A stretch of 8,851 bases of DNA from the IMG/VR virus record IMGVR_UViG_2778261667_000005, positions 1 to 8,851 of that record. The stretch is one strand, 5' to 3'. Below, one piece after another: positions 2 to 6,861 of this stretch (positions are counted from its first letter, which is position 1; every line of letters begins with the position of its first letter). This DNA is from a virus (taxonomy: Duplodnaviria > Heunggongvirae > Uroviricota > Caudoviricetes). The translations under genes and the position numbers were made by a program. The notes below the pieces were generated by a model that saw only the letters and a list, made by a program, of their open reading frames with translations, was not told the origin of the DNA and did not search any database.

Positions 2-214
2 GATAAATCGCATAAGGAAACTTGTGAAGTATTCAGCAAACAACCGCCGAGAACCCTCGCCCAATGCGGGCGGGGAGCAGTCACGAAAGCGCCTGGTGGC
101 GGCAGTCATCAGAAAGTGAGCCTGAACGGAAAGCGGTCGGTTTTCCCGGATCACGGTTCAAAGGAAATGCCTGAACCGCTACGCAAGAAAATAATGAGGG
201 ACCTGGGGCTTTAA
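2..214 (+). CDS. hicA: HicA-family toxin (mRNA interferase), 5' end truncated by window edge
   Basis: Frame 2 is open from the first base with no start codon in the window and ends at TAA 212-214. The translated C-terminus ...APGGGSHQKVSLNGKRSVFPDHGSKEMPEPLRKKIMRDLGL has the HicA pattern (GSH, conserved basic patch, P-x-H, C-terminal LGL) and resembles E. coli HicA as I recall it. It is followed 30 nt later by hicB. Not in the ORF track because the start lies outside the window. Confidence 0.7.
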   Translation, partial: DKSHKETCEVFSKQPPRTLAQCGRGAVTKAPGGGSHQKVSLNGKRSVFPDHGSKEMPEPLRKKIMRDLGL

Positions 215-244: not shown

Positions 245-676
245 ATGTTTAACTATCCAGTAAAACTGGAGCGCGACGACGAAACCGGTGCGTATGTCGT
301 ATCATGCCGCGACCTGCCTTTGTTTAATTCCGTGGGTGACTCAGTTGAAGAAGCCTTGCTTGAGGCTGGTTATGGATTGGTTGCAGCGGTTGCGATTGAG
401 ATTAAAGAACGGCGACCTGTGCCCACTGGTAGCAAGCCAAAAGAAGGAGAGTATGTTGTCTCCCTGCCAGTACTACCAGCAATGAAGGCTGCACTCCACA
501 ACGCGATGATAGAAACTGGTACACGTAAAGCAGAGTTGGCGCGCAAACTCAGAAAAAATGGAACACAGATTGATCGGCTTCTCGACGTCGAACACTCATC
601 AAAAGTTGAAACTGTCGAGCTTGCGCTGCATCAACTGAATAAAAATATCGCTGTATCTGTAACTTCCATGCGGTGA
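245..676 (+). CDS. hicB: HicB-family antitoxin (HicB fold plus C-terminal DNA-binding domain)
   Basis: 143 aa ORF with SD AGGAG at 233-237, 7 nt before ATG 245. N-terminal MFNYPVKLERDDETGAYVVSCRDLP... matches the HicB N-terminal fold pattern; the C-terminal third (...TGTRKAELARKLRKNGTQIDRLL...) looks like a small HTH/RHH DNA-binding module. Sits directly downstream of hicA in the canonical toxin-antitoxin order. Confidence 0.8.
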   Translation: MFNYPVKLERDDETGAYVVSCRDLPLFNSVGDSVEEALLEAGYGLVAAVAIEIKERRPVPTGSKPKEGEYVVSLPVLPAMKAALHNAMIETGTRKAELARKLRKNGTQIDRLLDVEHSSKVETVELALHQLNKNIAVSVTSMR

Positions 677-713: not shown

Positions 714-741
714 TTTAACGATGTCACCGCTTCAATATAAA
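714..741 (+). promoter_or_regulatory. Candidate sigma70 promoter for the 99 aa gene (TTTAAC - 16 nt - TATAAA)
   Basis: -35-like TTTAAC at 714-719, 16 nt spacer, -10-like TATAAA at 736-741, about 20 nt upstream of ATG 763. Motif match by eye only. Confidence 0.25.
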
Positions 742-762
742 AAGTTTTAATCGAGGAAAGAT

Positions 763-1062
763 ATGACCAGCATAGAAACGAAACACCTTTGGAATTTGCT
801 CCCTAAGTTTAAAAGCAATAAAGTCCTTCATGCATCAAAAATCAAAAATATCGAGATTATCTCATCGATTGGTAATACCCCTATTTGTGGCTATATCACA
901 TTAATGGAACCCCAAGGCGTAACAGTTCGTGTTGATGCAGCGTTTTTGCAAAAACACCGGCCAGATACTGGCGGCTATCTGCTCGGTTATGAGGACGGTT
1001 ATCTGTCCTATTTGCCGGAAGAACCATTTGAAGATATTTTCAAATATATTGCCGACGCGTGA
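763..1062 (+). CDS. Hypothetical 99 aa protein with acidic C-terminus; no family recognised
   Basis: ORF with SD GAGG at 753-756. Product MTSIETKHLWNLLPKF...YLPEEPFEDIFKYIADA. AT-richer than its neighbours by eye (roughly 40% GC). Followed by an intrinsic terminator. Confidence 0.65.
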   Translation: MTSIETKHLWNLLPKFKSNKVLHASKIKNIEIISSIGNTPICGYITLMEPQGVTVRVDAAFLQKHRPDTGGYLLGYEDGYLSYLPEEPFEDIFKYIADA

Positions 1063-1102
1063 CAAAATACCTTTGTTTTGTTCTTCCTTTGCCTTGATTC
1101 AC

Positions 1103-1136
1103 CGCAAACTCTTCCCGTTTCGCAGTTTGCTTTTTG
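1103..1136 (+). terminator. Rho-independent terminator for the plus-strand hicAB/orf99 unit
   Basis: Stem GCAAACT (1104-1110) pairs with AGTTTGC (1124-1130) around a 13 nt loop, followed by TTTTT (1131-1135). On the minus strand the A-run precedes the stem, so this is plus-strand specific. Confidence 0.45.
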
Positions 1137-1149
1137 AGGCGAACATTCC

Positions 1150-1178
1150 CGCCCGCCACCAAAGCGGGCGTCGGTTTG
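1150..1178 (+). terminator. Second GC-rich stem-loop (possible tandem or backup terminator)
   Basis: CGCCCGC (1150-1156) pairs with GCGGGCG (1164-1170) around a 7 nt loop, followed by tcggTTTgtg. Lies between the convergent orf99 and the 461 aa gene. Confidence 0.3.
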
Positions 1179-1189
1179 TGGGGCATGAT

Positions 1190-2575
1190 TCATTTTTCTA
1201 GGGGAACAGTTACCCGTTTTGTCGGGCTTTCAAACATAACAAAGTTAAGCCCTTTCCCCTCACCATATTCCTGTTCAATCTCATCAGAAACGGCGGTTAA
1301 AATATTACGCAGATCGACATCTCCACCACCGAACATATCGCCAAGCGCCTGTTGTTTATGAATCAGCTCGTCGTTGATTTTTTGTGCCATTTTTTTGAAT
1401 GCTGCCCCCATACGCTTCGCGCTACGATTATTTGCTACGATGAATAGCGCCAACGCCTCCGCTTCCGGCGTGCTGTCGCCAAATAACCCCCTTTGGGCGA
1501 TCACTTCTTCAACGGCCTGACCATTGTCTTTGGCTTCACGAACAAGATTGATTGCTTCCTGGAGTGCCGCAATTGCCTGTGTATCCAGACCATTAACTTG
1601 CTCTATACCGTCCACTAAACCAGTTACGGCGCCATGGTGAACGTCGCCAGACAGCGACTGCATTTGCGCAAAATCGCTGGCAGCCGTATTTAATGCGGTA
1701 AGTATATTGCGCATTTCCGGATCCGGTTCTTCCGCGACAAACCGAACAAGCCTTTCATCCTTGTACGCTTTGGCAAAAATTGCATTCTGGATGCGATCGA
1801 TAAGCTGTTTCGTTGGGCGCCCATCGGCAGTAAGCAAACCTGCCGTCGCTGTATCGCCTATTTCGCGCAAAAACGCACGAATAAACGCATCATTAGACCG
1901 TGCCAGCAGATTTCCATCATCTGAAGGATTAAATAGCGCCATGACGCTCTCAGTGAGAAATTGCGCATCCGCATACGCTTTTTCACTTGCTGCCATCTCT
2001 TGCAGATCGCTAATGTTTGAATCGCGGGCAAATTGAGCGCGGTCTACATCTGTGAGTCTTTCTCGCACCAGTACGGGCATAGACATTTGCGAAATTTCGT
2101 CAGGATTCAGACCAAACTCTTTCGCATGGTCGATCAAGTACTGACGATACTCATCCGCCTGTCCTTGCTCATAGGCACGCCAGATCCCCATACTCCTTCC
2201 GTTGCCGGATTCAACAACGTTGTCCGGACCAACTATCGGCGCTCCGTGGCTGCTCATACCGGAATCCGTTAATTGTGCCGGGCGTAAAGTGGAGGCAATG
2301 CGGTTAACCTGAAGTTTACTGGATAGACGTGTGCGATCACGTGGCTGGAGTTCTTCCGGGAAGGCCGGGTTAATCGTACCGTCAAGGTTATTCGAAATGA
2401 TTAGGCTACTGGCATCAACAACCTTAAAAGCTGTCTTTACCTCTGCGCCTTTGCTGGTGACTACGTAGCTACTTCGTCCCAGGCGAGTTTCTTTCCTCTC
2501 TAATGAAGAAACCAGAGCAATGATGCTGTTAATGTCTGCGGCCTCGGAAAGCGCAGAAGTAACTGACTTGTTCAC
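1190..2575 (-). CDS. ParB/Srx-like domain protein (461 aa); terminal gene of the Dar-like operon (P1 ddrB position), function unknown
   Basis: Long ORF starting at GTG 2575 with SD AGGGGGAG 6 nt upstream. Residues about 50-135 (KVVDASSLIISNN...EELQPRDRTRLSSKLQVNRIAS...GAPIVGPDNVVESGNGRSMGIW) follow the ParB N-terminal domain layout (beta strand, QPR box, helix, G-x-x-R box) with SGNGRS in place of the canonical GERRxRA. QPRDR is encoded at 2333-2347. Confidence 0.6.
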   Translation of the reverse strand: MNKSVTSALSEAADINSIIALVSSLERKETRLGRSSYVVTSKGAEVKTAFKVVDASSLIISNNLDGTINPAFPEELQPRDRTRLSSKLQVNRIASTLRPAQLTDSGMSSHGAPIVGPDNVVESGNGRSMGIWRAYEQGQADEYRQYLIDHAKEFGLNPDEISQMSMPVLVRERLTDVDRAQFARDSNISDLQEMAASEKAYADAQFLTESVMALFNPSDDGNLLARSNDAFIRAFLREIGDTATAGLLTADGRPTKQLIDRIQNAIFAKAYKDERLVRFVAEEPDPEMRNILTALNTAASDFAQMQSLSGDVHHGAVTGLVDGIEQVNGLDTQAIAALQEAINLVREAKDNGQAVEEVIAQRGLFGDSTPEAEALALFIVANNRSAKRMGAAFKKMAQKINDELIHKQQALGDMFGGGDVDLRNILTAVSDEIEQEYGEGKGLNFVMFESPTKRVTVPLEK

Positions 2576-2669: not shown

Positions 2670-3038
2670 TTACCCGGCATAACCGTTGGCTTTCACCCAA
2701 CTTATGGTCTTCTCTTTAGCCTGCTCCAACGTCAGGAACTCGCCTACATAGTTTGAGAGTCCACGCAGCACATCAATAAACTCCATTTGCGTGGACTTTG
2801 TGAATTCCCCTCTAAGGAAGTCAGTCACTATCTTAGGAACTTCATCTACAACAGGAGCAGTCTGTTGTTGCAGCTCCGCTGCCGGTTGCGCGGCAGTCCC
2901 CAGTCCCAATTTCAGCATCACATCAACAATCTGCTTACCAATGGTGACGCGTTGCAATACTGGCGCGATTTTCTGCGCCTGCATTAGATCTGATAGCTCT
3001 TTACCTAATTTCAGGCGGTCTAAAACAGAGATAGTCAT
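2670..3038 (-). CDS. Small 122 aa protein, Dar-like operon member (P1 ddrA position, tentative)
   Basis: ATG at 3038-3036 overlaps the stop of the upstream 650 aa gene (TAATG). SD GGGAGG lies 7 nt upstream. No motif recognised; the call is by position and size only. Confidence 0.5.
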   Translation of the reverse strand: MTISVLDRLKLGKELSDLMQAQKIAPVLQRVTIGKQIVDVMLKLGLGTAAQPAAELQQQTAPVVDEVPKIVTDFLRGEFTKSTQMEFIDVLRGLSNYVGEFLTLEQAKEKTISWVKANGYAG

Positions 3039-4990
3039 TAAGCACCTCCCTGCTGAATTTCAGCCAGAATGTTGATCAGGTAGTCAACTGCTGCACCCAC
3101 AGTGGCTTCGTTCTCGTCGTATCGACCTGCACTGATAAGAGCGTTTGCAGCTTCCTGCACATGGTCAAGTTCGGCACTGATTACCGTCAGATCGCGGGAT
3201 GTAAACTGCACCGGGACGGATTTAAGGTACTCCAACGCTTTATCTGCTTCCTGATCAGCTTCAGTTGCCGCTTCTCCAGCGTCTTCCGGCGTTGGCTGTT
3301 GCTCTGGTTCTGTTTGTGGGTGTGATTCTGGCTCAACTACAGGTGCTAATTCAGGCTCTGGCGTTGCTTCGTTTGAATGATTTTGAAGGGCGTTATATAC
3401 GTCCATAATGAAAAGGTTCTCCCCATCACCAAGCGGATAAGCCACGTTCGGAAACTCTTTGCGGAAAAGAATTTTCACTTGCGCCTTGAATGTTTTCAGG
3501 TCACTGCCAAACAGGTCTACATAACCATCAATATGTTTCGACATGCTGGACGCAACCAATTGGCCTGCAAAATCTTTCAGCTCATCTTCATCAGGAAGAT
3601 AGAGCAACTCGTACTGGCTGACTTCTTCATCTGTCAGTTTACGGTCATACGTAATGATACCGTGACGTGCATATTCGTAATACTGATCAGCCTGGTCAGG
3701 ACGTCCAAATACGGCTTTATTTCCTTCCGGTACAGTACCTACACCAGCCGGACGAGACTGGAGTGCATAGCGGTATTTGCCAACATCTTCAAGGCTAGAT
3801 TGATAAAGCGCATGGCGATATTTGCTAACATTCTGTGTTGCCTGGCTGTTATTCTGATAACGGTTCAGATCCTGTGGCAACACATCCACCTTGTATTGTT
3901 CAGCTTTATGTCCGCGATAGGCTTTTAGCAATTTAGTGGCCGCATCTGCAAGAGTACCACCTTTAACAGTGCTGGTATCAATACAGTAGTTACCTTCAGG
4001 CGCTGAGATCGTAACATAGGTTTCAGCGCCTGACGTGACATAGTTAACCACCGCGCCGTTATCCAGTGTAGTTTTACCGCCAGTTGCGAGATTGTGTTTT
4101 ACGTGTCGAAGTTGGTCGCTGAACGCTCGTTCTTTCGTTTTTTCACCTTTAGCAGACAACAATTTATCGCGTTTTGCTTGTAATTCCTCGTTGATGGCTT
4201 TCTGGGCATCAAGTTTTTTTTGCATCTCCGTAAGAGCAGCACGCTTTTCAGTCAGACCACGTTGAGCTACTTCCACCTGATCAATCATTATTGACCGTTG
4301 TTCTGCTAGTTTATCTGCTTCATTGAGATAACTCTCAATATCTGCCTTCATTTTGTCCTGGCGCTCTTTTGCTTTCTTAAATTTTTCGCTGTTACGCTCA
4401 ATCAAATTAGATAGCGCCTGGCATACCTGGCTTAAAGAAACATCTCTCCCACCAATCGGGGCGACAACGTGAGTTACGTTACGCTTATTAAGTAAAAACT
4501 GAAATGCAACCAGTTCATCATTACCCTTGATTTTCGCGCCATCGGCGGTTGGAGAGTGGAAAATGATGCTTGTGCTTTGCCCATCAGTCAGTGGTATCTG
4601 TGCTGTTAAAACAGGAATATTAGCTACGCGACGAACACGCCCGATAATTGCTCCGCCAATACAATTCCGACCATTTTCATCCGCCCCTGCTTCATCAGTT
4701 CCGGCTGATATATTCGTTCCATTCAGGCCACGATTTAGCGCGCGCACGAAAGCCCGCATTGTTTGTGCAAGCCTGATTCTGGTCGTTGTGATGGCCTCAA
4801 ACATAGCTTCGTCGGACACAACAAGAATTTCATTGCCCATATAGGCAAGCTCGATATCTTCTAATGTAGCCGCTTCAAAAATCAGATCGTCTTCACTTAA
4901 ATCCTCCGAAGACCAGCGGCTTGGGGTATAACCAGGAATCGTATCAGCGAAAGTAGATTGAATATTGATCCGTATGGGATTCTTAATCAT
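3038..4990 (-). CDS. DarA-like large protein (650 aa), putative virion-packaged anti-restriction/head morphogenesis component (tentative)
   Basis: ATG at 4990-4988 overlaps the upstream stop (ATGA). N-terminal globular part, a K/E/A/Q-rich predicted coiled coil (residues about 198-292, nt about 4115-4399), and an acidic P/E-rich linker (nt 3239-3373). Size and operon position match P1 DarA as I recall it. The 205 aa upstream product repeats part of its architecture, as expected for Hdf (homolog of DarA fragment). Confidence 0.45.
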   Translation of the reverse strand: MIKNPIRINIQSTFADTIPGYTPSRWSSEDLSEDDLIFEAATLEDIELAYMGNEILVVSDEAMFEAITTTRIRLAQTMRAFVRALNRGLNGTNISAGTDEAGADENGRNCIGGAIIGRVRRVANIPVLTAQIPLTDGQSTSIIFHSPTADGAKIKGNDELVAFQFLLNKRNVTHVVAPIGGRDVSLSQVCQALSNLIERNSEKFKKAKERQDKMKADIESYLNEADKLAEQRSIMIDQVEVAQRGLTEKRAALTEMQKKLDAQKAINEELQAKRDKLLSAKGEKTKERAFSDQLRHVKHNLATGGKTTLDNGAVVNYVTSGAETYVTISAPEGNYCIDTSTVKGGTLADAATKLLKAYRGHKAEQYKVDVLPQDLNRYQNNSQATQNVSKYRHALYQSSLEDVGKYRYALQSRPAGVGTVPEGNKAVFGRPDQADQYYEYARHGIITYDRKLTDEEVSQYELLYLPDEDELKDFAGQLVASSMSKHIDGYVDLFGSDLKTFKAQVKILFRKEFPNVAYPLGDGENLFIMDVYNALQNHSNEATPEPELAPVVEPESHPQTEPEQQPTPEDAGEAATEADQEADKALEYLKSVPVQFTSRDLTVISAELDHVQEAANALISAGRYDENEATVGAAVDYLINILAEIQQGGA

Positions 4991-6040: not shown

Positions 6041-6366
6041 TATTTCTCTCCACCTTTTCCCCCACTCATAATTACGCTTATGAGATTCAAGACATTGCCA
6101 GCTCTGGACTTCAAGCCTTGCAAGATTTCGCTTCCGTTGTTACTGGTAATCAGAACAACGCAGAAAATGATACCTTCAGGCCATTCTTGGCTAACCGCCA
6201 CTCCATACCCCGCAAGCCCGGCTGTTACCGCAGTAAACAATTCACTCGCAAGATTGAGCAGGGACGCAGAAATGCGCCCGTCTCTAACTCCGAGAAGGAA
6301 TACGCCGGTTCCACTTAGTAGGGATGTTATGACTACTACAGCCAGATTTTCATAATCTGCAAACAT
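6040..6366 (-). CDS. Holin-like small membrane protein (108 aa, three predicted TM helices, charged C-terminus); LydA-like
   Basis: ATG 6366-6364 with GGAGG upstream. Hydrophobic segments LAVVVITSLLSGTGVFLLGV, LLNLASELFTAVTAGLAGYGVAV and GIIFCVVLITS, with C-terminal GGKGGEK. First gene of the coupled operon. Confidence 0.5.
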   Translation of the reverse strand: MFADYENLAVVVITSLLSGTGVFLLGVRDGRISASLLNLASELFTAVTAGLAGYGVAVSQEWPEGIIFCVVLITSNNGSEILQGLKSRAGNVLNLISVIMSGGKGGEK

Positions 6367-6444
6367 ACCCCTCCAGAAATAACATCTAATGCGCCACTAA
6401 CTTAGTCAGTTTGTTATTTCTTTACAGAACATCTTGTGACAGCT

Positions 6445-6464
6445 CCCCGCCCTGTCGGGCGGGG
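6445..6464. other. Perfect 8 bp GC stem-loop (CCCCGCCC tgtc GGGCGGGG) without a U tract, in the intergenic region upstream of the holin-like gene
   Basis: Read directly from the sequence. Sits about 80-100 nt upstream of the minus-strand operon start. Neither strand has a T-run after it. Confidence 0.5.
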
Positions 6465-6530
6465 CTTCCCACTTCTTAGTCCGCACCGTCTGTATGACGG
6501 ATTCTGGCCTTTTTACGATTTGTGCTTCCC

Positions 6531-6562
6531 TTTTGTTTGCGGGATAGCGCTTTTTGTTTGCG
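6531..6562. repeat. 11 bp direct repeat TTTTGTTTGCG x2, spaced 21 bp (two helical turns)
   Basis: Copies at 6531-6541 and 6552-6562, in non-coding DNA upstream of the Dar-like operon. Candidate regulator binding sites. Confidence 0.45.
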
Positions 6563-6667
6563 TCGCAGATTTCGGCTGGCATTAACTTCCGGAGTCTCAC
6601 TGACTCCATCGACACCAGTACACCAATGGGCGCTTTTCCTTTCACGTAATGGGGGGCGCTGACAGAA

Positions 6668-6829
6668 ATGGAATGCGAGCTTATCGAAGCTGACAGCCTC
6701 TGGAACGCGCCGTCAGGCTGAATATGGCAACGGATGAGGAACACACGACTGGAGGAGTGGGAACGCTACAGCGTTCTGGTCAGTCGTGTGGAGCCTGCAA
6801 ATCCTGAATGGACAGATAAACCAGAGTAA
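6668..6829 (+). pseudogene. Decayed remnant of a second tail-fibre assembly (Tfa) gene, C-terminal part only, convergent with the intact tfa
   Basis: Plus-strand frame reads [58 protein letters not shown]. The last about 30 residues match the Tfa C-terminal motif (lambda Tfa ...[26 protein letters not shown]..., and the intact Tfa here ...LINWMKYVQQVEATDTS...). In-frame TGA at 6719-6721. No Tfa-like sequence in any frame further upstream. Confidence 0.5.
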
Positions 6830-6833
6830 AAAT

Positions 6834-6861
6834 TAAGGCCCAGCATCGGGCCTTTTATTAT
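6834..6861. terminator. Bidirectional Rho-independent terminator between the convergent tfa and Tfa remnant
   Basis: Stem AGGCCC (6836-6841) pairs with GGGCCT (6848-6853) around a 6 nt loop. Followed by TTTATTATT on the plus strand and preceded by AAAAATT (T5 on the minus strand). The stops of both flanking reading frames abut it. Confidence 0.65.

Follow-up and report, generated by a model that had tools for sequence, protein, structure and literature searches.

We analyzed ORF99, a small open reading frame (ORF) in the virus record IMGVR_UViG_2778261667_000005, of which the window, meaning the whole stretch of DNA that was analyzed, comprises 8,851 nucleotides (nt). The window is the full 8851-bp contig PTSF01000038.1 of assembly GCA_002965845.1 and represents a piece of a P1-like phage-plasmid; its closest complete relatives are 90-kb non-mobilisable phage-plasmids of E. 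coli with approximately 91-92% identity. ORF99 lies on the + strand (763..1062), starts with ATG at 763, ends with TGA at 1062 and encodes 99 amino acids (aa), which confirms the preliminary description of a 99-residue gene downstream of hicAB. The hicA toxin gene (2..214, + strand; Pfam HicA_toxin, 6.4e-07) is cut at its 5' end by the contig end, and the hicB antitoxin gene (245..676, + strand) was matched to Pfam HicB-like_2 (2.9e-12) and PHROG 497 (4e-34). On the other side, a ddrB-like gene of 461 aa (1190..2575, - strand; Pfam ddrB-ParB, 2.2e-42) is convergent with ORF99 and is the last gene of the dar anti-restriction/lysis operon.

The Shine-Dalgarno sequence GAGGA was found at 753..757 on the + strand, 5 nt before the ATG, and thus ORF99 possesses its own ribosome-binding site (RBS), as had been proposed. 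The proposal that the gene is richer in AT than its flanks, with a GC content of roughly 40%, was also borne out: the GC content of ORF99 was 40.7%, compared with 53.1% for hicA, 47.9% for hicB, 49.2% for ddrB and 45.6% for the whole window. A dedicated terminator had been described as well, but the terminator scan of positions 600-1300 revealed no intrinsic terminator on the + strand. Upon inspection of the sequence, we found a 7-bp hairpin (GCAAACT/AGTTTGC with a 13-nt loop, 1104-1130) followed by TTTTT (1104..1135, + strand), which is absent from the scan output and may act as a weak terminator of ORF99. The region 1060-1200 folded better than its shuffled versions (-40.8 kcal/mol, z = -2.73), and this fold contained a GC-rich 7-bp hairpin, CGCCCGC ... 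GCGGGCG, at 1150..1170 between the convergent ORF99 and ddrB genes. A role in superinfection exclusion or immunity, which had been suggested for the product, gained no support, as no family of that kind was matched and no long hydrophobic stretch fit for a membrane segment or signal peptide was seen in a reading by eye only.

ORF99 showed no match in Pfam (E ≤ 0.1), NCBIfam or PADLOC, a first word-indexed protein search returned only 2 proteins, and megablast of positions 600-1250 against phages gave no match. The view of ORF99 as an orphan without a family nevertheless had to be abandoned, since it matched PHROG 11049 (2e-18) and PHROG 872 (4e-10), both of unknown function. When 1.84 billion representatives were searched with phmmer, 1229 representative clusters were found at E ≤ 1e-3, matching query residues 13-94, and a profile of 27 stand-alone members retrieved 3205 clusters (90% identity) at E ≤ 1e-5; nearly all of the latter were 85-100 aa in length (among the top 120), contained no Pfam domain and were labelled 'hypothetical'. 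The conserved domain proper comprises residues 13-94 (799..1044, + strand), as delimited by the phmmer ranges, the alignment and hmmsearch, and the family hidden Markov model (HMM) matched ORF99 over its full length (4e-30, model positions 2-89 of 90). An HMM that was built without ORF99 and the P1-type sequences described below gave ORF99 a score of 83.6 bits. In the alignment, the end of ORF99 coincided with the end of the stand-alone members, and proteins of this architecture (≤110 aa) occupied 41 of the 80 IMG/VR loci. The family is carried by phages of many Proteobacteria, including podoviruses and N4-like, lambdoid, jumbo and P1-like phages, and 44 INPHARED records contain a member. One member, in the Ralstonia phage AhaGv (OR820515.1, 4004-4279), is labelled 'head-tail adaptor'; neighboring labels in that record look implausible for the size of the genes ('portal protein', 954 nt; 'terminase large subunit', 198 nt), and its annotation is unusable as functional evidence. 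Because the ORF99 protein recurs in a constant context, has thousands of homologues and shows a ratio of nonsynonymous to synonymous substitution rates (dN/dS) of 0.50-0.63 against the P1-type N-terminal domains, ORF99 is a real gene and no chance ORF.

The family consensus reads PxYxCHKxVxAxKI ... KHxPxxGGYxVxYxDGYxSxSPxxFExGY. ORF99 agreed with the consensus at 19 of the 29 positions with ≥80% conservation; the agreeing positions are listed as P14, K20, A24, K26, I27, V57, K64, H65, P67, G70, G71, Y72, Y76, D78, G79, Y80, S82, P85, F89 and E90. The residues retained in the family consensus include K20, K26, K64, H19 and H65 together with Y16, Y72, Y76, Y80 and Y93, and this conserved set of lysines, histidines and tyrosines would suit contacts with phosphate and base.

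The nearest relatives of ORF99 are longer proteins encoded by P1-type elements. In a tblastn search, ORF99 shared 53% identity with residues 1-98 of the 225-aa proteins that are labelled 'DUF2829 domain-containing' in Punavirus (Ro157c2YLVW, SJ46 and RCS47), represented by YP_009914603.1 from vB_EcoM-Ro157c2YLVW. Over the first ~91 codons, it showed 71% amino acid and 84-85% nucleotide identity to the 217-aa protein WP_065226852.1 from the IncY P1-like plasmid NZ_CP012497. The start and the RBS region are common to ORF99 and these genes, which are located in a similar variable stretch upstream of ddrB. Whereas ORF99 ends after the shared domain, the P1-type proteins continue with a β-rich linker of ~40 residues and a Tad2-like domain (PF11195, residues 141-225), and their C-terminal half matched the Tad2 structures 9eib and 8v3e at 6e-20. 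In the nearest relatives, Tad2 (PF11195/DUF2829) is therefore encoded by the same gene as the ORF99-type domain. ORF99 itself was rejected as a Tad2 protein: the 'DUF2829' label belongs to the C-terminal half of the long proteins, ORF99 aligns only to residues 1-98 and it has no Pfam hit. At the DNA level, positions 733..1034 (+ strand) were 84% identical to the 5' part of the P1-type genes, covering the RBS region and codons 1-91 (blastn against four P1-type loci, L001, L002, L003 and L013, and megablast). Judged from this homology, the ORF99 DNA originated in the 5' half of a P1-type gene of this two-domain architecture, or recombined with it, and the Tad2 half is absent. A further variant, P0002 (L013, 8001-8408, on a P1-like contig of GCA_902846325.1), is a 135-aa P1-type protein that has lost the entire Tad2 domain through an in-frame deletion (...AGGIATFVVE) and retains the N-terminal domain and the β-rich linker, in a size and layout like those of the phage L protein Dec (134 aa).

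The structure of ORF99 was predicted with AlphaFold2 from a 150-sequence alignment, and the model had a predicted local distance difference test score (pLDDT) of 88.8 and a predicted template modelling score (pTM) of 0.79. The model shows a small β-barrel with two short helices, and this barrel is predicted to be of the OB type, with five strands. The check by structure prediction and Foldseek, which had been recommended for this gene, was informative: the top-ranked match of the model was Dec (PDB 6e3c; E = 2.7e-3). In agreement with this, a profile search of PDB sequences matched the Dec OB-fold domain (E = 0.001), with KPEVGGY...AFExxYT in common, and alignment of the family profile to the OB segment of Dec with hhalign gave a probability of 95.6%. 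A PDB search with the single ORF99 sequence gave nothing meaningful, and no chain other than Dec, including any Tad3-Tad8 chain, was matched by the family profile. By profile comparison, the ORF99 domain thus appears to share remote homology with both the domain by which phage L Dec binds capsids and the N-terminal domain of 'RyR Tad', a protein of Pectobacterium phage CB1 that is described below.

ORF99 and Dec have the OB-fold domain in common, but several differences from Dec were present. Dec binds capsids and needs its C-terminal trimeric β-helix stalk for the decoration role (PMC6449081), whereas ORF99 stops at residue 99, straight after the OB domain, and has no trimerising stalk. In addition, Dec lacks the YxDGYxSxSP and PxYxCHK motifs of the ORF99 family. 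The homology and fold similarity raise the question of whether ORF99 is a capsid decoration protein that functions like Dec on the virion surface, and in some annotations, members of the family do bear the names 'capsid decoration protein' or 'Dec protein'. The P1-type proteins and P0002 also possess a β-rich linker that is collinear with the Dec stalk, although the match was below significance (E = 0.5). However, the family genes lie among early and accessory genes outside the head modules, the domain is fused to cytoplasmic proteins that sequester immune signals (sponges), the strand of ORF99 is opposite to that of the late operon, and the P1 virion proteome contains no decoration protein (PMC9024508). 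The contexts and the fusion partners of the family point to a cytoplasmic role, unlike that of Dec, and we regard a decoration function of ORF99 as very improbable.

To describe these partners, Pfam domains were scanned in 150 representatives of the family. The domains found were PF21825 (crAss001_48; 8 proteins), PF11195 (Tad2-like; 7), PF13876 (Phage_gp49_66; 2), DUF4406 (1) and DUF551 (1), and the scan of 71 non-redundant IMG/VR proteins revealed Tad2-like (4), PF13876 (3), RyR (1) and DUF4406 (1) domains. Upon clustering of the non-OB regions, 12 of the 97 grouped with the Tad2 domain. PF13876 corresponds to the Acb4 sponge and PF21825 to the Sequestin sponge (bioRxiv 10.1101/2025.07.12.664507), and phage RyR-domain proteins degrade or sequester 2'/3'-cyclic ADP-ribose (2'/3'cADPR) (PMC13232231). 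An OB-Tad1 fusion was also identified, as the C-terminal residues 105-176 of P0069 matched Tad1 (PDB 8kbb) at 2e-15, and P0219 contains an Acb2/Tad1 hairpin domain. The order of the domains varied; P0003 has the order OB-Tad2, P0127 has the order Tad2-OB, and P0143 is a triple fusion of OB, Tad2 and PF21825. The domain thus occurs on either side of a fusion, its partners come from five signal-targeting families that are unrelated to one another, namely Tad1, Tad2, Acb4, Sequestin and RyR, and nearly every recognizable fusion partner of the domain appears, by its family assignment, to target nucleotide immune signals. Most of the domains fused to the OB domain had no Pfam or PDB match, including those of P0030, P0070, P0106, P0111 and P0120 and many singletons of the 97 non-OB regions. 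Because the recognizable partners are signal sponges or degraders, these unmatched partners are candidate members of additional sponge families that are as yet undescribed.

The neighborhood analysis that had been suggested, with and without hicAB, revealed that the family is not tied to hicAB and has no conserved partner. A conserved operon partner was rejected, since 137 immediate neighbors fell into 101 PHROGs, none of which occurred more than twice. Separate sponge genes (Acb4, Tad2, Acb2/Tad1 and Sequestin) accounted for 5 of the 137 neighbors, an enrichment for the families that also occur as fusion partners. The annotated contexts were rows of small early or accessory genes, including an N4-like 'anti-signalling hotspot' by the primase gene. 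We took sponge-like genetic behavior as it is defined in bioRxiv 10.1101/2025.07.12.664507, and the family shows this behavior in that it is small, mostly stand-alone, phage-borne and recurrently fused or adjacent to sponges.

A closely comparable system is found in Pectobacterium phage vB_PatP_CB1, in which the C-terminal RyR domain of gp68 ('RyR Tad') is a gcADPR sponge (bioRxiv 10.64898/2026.06.04.730250). Using hhalign, residues 1-86 of gp68 were aligned to the ORF99 family with 96.4% probability, and the Cbunavirus protein Horatius_74 was aligned with 98.1% probability. The gp68 N-terminal domain and the stand-alone Cbunavirus ORFs contain both motifs of the ORF99 family, YQ[CS]HKxVxA and GYLVVY..Y.SWSP..F.xGY. 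Like the ORF99 family, the Cbunavirus domain is found as a fusion with a signal sponge as well as by itself, in a hotspot of accessory genes. Some structural differences were present; the Cbunavirus versions have a compact form of ~70 aa in which, unlike in ORF99, the variable middle hairpin is missing, and the RyR sponge domain of gp68 has no counterpart in ORF99. At the primase-side locus, CB1 carries the OB-RyR fusion (6143-6694), whereas Horatius (2995-3210, 71 aa) and Kc283 (2495-2728, 77 aa) carry OB-only ORFs, which is a second independent case in which the sponge partner was lost and the OB ORF was kept. The record labels at this locus, 'RyR domain-containing protein' and, in Kc283, 'Dec protein', are misleading.

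Sequestin (PF21825) provides the closest parallel in genetic behavior. It was discovered because it is a small domain that mostly stands alone but also occurs in fusions with Tad2 and Acb4 (bioRxiv 10.1101/2025.07.12.664507), and the ORF99 family is likewise small, mostly stand-alone and fused to several unrelated sponge families. In contrast, the Sequestin fold is α-helical and unrelated to the β-barrel of ORF99, and 3'cADPR binding has been demonstrated for Sequestin, while a ligand of the ORF99 family can only be inferred. Furthermore, the ORF99 family is absent from Pfam and is therefore invisible to a Pfam-based search for fusions, unlike Sequestin. Lockin, which by its description is a β-rich hexamer with a K35/K45/S46/T47/K48 pocket and no INPHARED members, was considered and rejected as identical to ORF99, whose family occurs in 44 INPHARED records with other conserved residues.

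Following the rule drawn from Sequestin, that a small stand-alone domain recurrently fused to unrelated sponges likely targets immune signaling, we propose that ORF99 may be a module for counter-defence, in the simplest case a protein that self-associates and binds a nucleotide signal, and we assign this reading a probability of about 40%. ORF99 is an accessory gene that a P1-like phage-plasmid acquired horizontally, and it encodes a complete stand-alone copy of the domain. In the proposed reading, its product would be small, soluble and probably self-associating, and it would bind a nucleotide-derived immune signal other than the 3'cADPR of its usual partners, which would make it a new protein of the sponge type. 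The anti-defence function suggested in the preliminary description is thus partly supported, by association only but by a strong one, through the Tad2-gene origin and the sponge fusions and neighbors. At the level of the family, the Dec-like OB domain would constitute a new, large (>3000 clusters at 90% identity) and unannotated phage counter-defence family that acts as a new sponge for a nucleotide immune signal beyond those of its fusion partners, or as a module that masks the phage trigger of signaling defences, a possibility that we put forward more tentatively.

The same data can also be read in terms of protein binding, in which ORF99, much as the Dec OB-fold docks onto the lattice of coat proteins, would attach to a structural protein of the phage or to a defence protein of the host and either mask a trigger or tether and oligomerise partner sponges. 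This would be compatible with a capsid-binding domain as the closest solved relative, with the protein-protein contacts that the gp68 N-terminal domain makes through its swapped β1 strand, and with the position of ORF99 adjoining the genes for head-internal Dar proteins. Signaling defences are reported to sense structural proteins such as the capsid vertex and the tail fibre, and Tad3-Tad8 work by binding Thoeris proteins. However, every named fusion partner of the family binds small molecules and the neighborhood contains no conserved partner, and hence we consider protein binding unlikely.

The insertion site also bears on ORF99 as an accessory gene. Identical ORF99 proteins or variants with a single amino acid change were found on at least 18 contigs, in every case in a constant context. 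In sibling phage-plasmids, the insertion site, bounded by the stop of ddrB and the start of the portal gene, was seen in three states. The site is empty in pPSS-10_3 (NZ_AP027688), in which the portal gene directly follows ddrB; it contains only hicAB, at 91% nucleotide identity and without ORF99, in NZ_CP104667; and it contains hicAB together with ORF99 in the window and, in all, at least 16 further contigs, including six of the loci compared here (L007-L012). Because the site exists in these three states, hicAB-ORF99 is an accessory cassette that was inserted in a hotspot adjacent to the dar anti-restriction operon. The idea that ORF99 is a moron or accessory gene is supported by this comparison. 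The ancestral ddrB/portal junction is marked by a remnant copy, ~80% identical by blastn, of the portal gene 5' end and its upstream region (1061..1123, + strand). The only direct repeat flanking the insert was this portal-start remnant of ~60 nt, and no ends like those of an insertion sequence (IS) were found.

The position of ORF99 on the same strand as hicAB, 86 nt after hicB and with no terminator detected between them, would also be expected of a third component or a regulator of the toxin-antitoxin module. Sibling plasmids, the closest ones included, hold hicAB without ORF99, hicAB is missing from thousands of contexts in which the ORF99 family is present, and neither PADLOC nor toxin-antitoxin families were matched. 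Nothing supports the functional link to hicAB that had been considered, and such a role is the most improbable of those discussed here. The arrangement does bear on transcription: with a gap of 86 nt and no terminator found in it, read-through from hicAB is as plausible as a promoter of ORF99's own, and the gene would be expressed by either route if it acts as a counter-defence module.

Several observations weigh against the proposal that ORF99 is a functional counter-defence module. The plausible promoter that had been described could not be recovered; the consensus scan for sigma-70 promoters over positions 600-1300 found none on the + strand, and the weak candidate, a -10-like hexamer TATAAA (736..741, + strand) with a poor -35 region, was seen by eye only and is absent from the scan output. 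Known sponges, a class that comprises Tad1, Tad2, Acb2, Acb4, Sequestin, Lockin and TadIV-1, are homo-oligomers with usually positive pockets at protomer interfaces, whereas ORF99 carries a net charge of about -2, and the strand-swapped dimer of the gp68 N-terminal domain is the sole hint of oligomerization. The earlier characterization of the product as acidic applies only weakly, as its isoelectric point is 5.85 and 12 Asp and Glu residues stand against 10 Lys and Arg residues, which makes it only mildly acidic. ORF99 is also rare, and no copy was found in 5426 complete E. coli genomes. The only relative with a published test is the N-terminal domain of gp68 (residues 1-86), a distant homologue; by itself it showed no activity against type I Thoeris, and its crystal structure is that of a β1 strand-swapped dimer, in which it serves as a dimerization module (bioRxiv 10.64898/2026.06.04.730250). 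We found that the stand-alone Cbunavirus versions are closer to the consensus (CHK, FDEGY) than the fused gp68 copy (SHK, FDAGN). Because the stand-alone versions keep the consensus better, the negative result for the gp68 domain may not generalize to the family.

The sequence of ORF99 contributes further points of this kind. The homology that it shares with the two-domain gene ends within codon 91, as expected of a truncation, and the last 8 codons and the stop come from unrelated sequence. With the independent HMM, ORF99 scored at the 4th percentile of a 340-sequence sample. At three positions with ≥93% conservation, it carries the specific substitutions H19N, S84L and G92I, each of which is present in ≤1.5% of the family, while the P1-type long proteins retain H, S and G there. 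ORF99 additionally departs from the consensus by Y16F, V22L, V74L and Y93F and, at less conserved sites, by A86E and A88P. In relatives, the P1-type gene is often disrupted, by IS26 in RCS47, by frameshifts in P0004 and P0005 and by the Tad2 deletion in P0002.

These findings would also fit ORF99 as a decaying remnant of an OB-Tad2 gene that lost its linker and Tad2 domain by recombination; the OB part would only have aided dimerization or stability in the parent protein, and ORF99 would now be a young, neutral passenger of the hicAB cassette. The truncation inside codon 91, the substitutions at conserved residues with the low HMM percentile, the inactivity of the isolated gp68 domain and the repeated breakage of the P1-type gene are all what this explanation predicts; the rarity of ORF99 and the near identity of its copies fit a recent event, and a dN/dS of ~0.5-0.6 indicates only weak constraint. 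In opposition to this, the whole domain is kept, and ORF99 stops where bona fide stand-alone members stop. The new tail, FEDIFKYI, fits the family pattern FExGYxxI and resembles that of the stand-alone protein P0077 (FERIYKKVI). Among the architectures of the family, the stand-alone form is the most frequent, and somewhere, therefore, the domain must be functional by itself. OB-only ORFs remained intact after loss of the partner in three independent cases, namely ORF99, P0002 and the Cbunavirus ORFs of Horatius and Kc283. Moreover, the RBS of ORF99 is intact, and its dN/dS was counted as not above that between the intact long genes, for which the values are 0.44-0.47. A plain random truncation was rejected, given that ORF99 ends at a natural domain boundary. 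On balance we find a mere remnant somewhat doubtful and retain the counter-defence module as the preferred reading, although ORF99 may already be decaying.

The remainder of the window is occupied by the dar operon and the tail-fibre region. The genes ddrB-ddrA-darA-hdf-lydB-lydA form an operon that is convergent with ORF99, and hicAB lies upstream of ORF99; beyond ddrB, the - strand carries ddrA (3038-2670), darA (4990-3038), hdf (5619-4987), lydB (6040-5594) and the lydA holin gene (6366-6040), and the tail-fibre assembly and tail-fibre genes lie beyond lydA. The ddrB-like gene product of 461 aa is shorter than the ~995-aa products in P1-type elements (L001 and L013), although its ddrB-ParB domain is kept. 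In the gap between lydA and the tail-fibre assembly gene (6367-6857), positions 6578-6685 on the + strand encode a 36-residue fragment of a Cin-type DNA invertase (residues 84-119, 81% identity), and sibling phage-plasmids carry a Cin-type DNA invertase at the matching place (11689-12261 in L007). As the invertase is reduced to this fragment, the tail-fibre inversion switch appears to be lost or frozen in the element of the window. The Pfam scan gave no family match for a 112-aa ORF at 6406-6744 (- strand), Rfam revealed no RNA family over positions 1-2000, and ARAGORN detected neither tRNA nor tmRNA genes anywhere in the window.

The pattern seen at the level of the family appears to be undescribed so far, and the sole mention that we found is a remark on an unknown fold in the RyR Tad preprint; the family escaped notice because it is absent from Pfam. 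If the proposed reading is correct, a very common and so far invisible family would join the phage proteins that disarm nucleotide-signaling immunity (Thoeris, CBASS and their relatives), and it might expose a signal or a sensing step outside the reach of the known sponges. The reading would also explain the N-terminal domain of RyR Tad and tie it to phage L Dec, which suggests a common origin of a capsid-binding fold and an immune-evasion fold. For the window alone, the message would be smaller, namely an accessory insertion beside the dar operon that may already be decaying.

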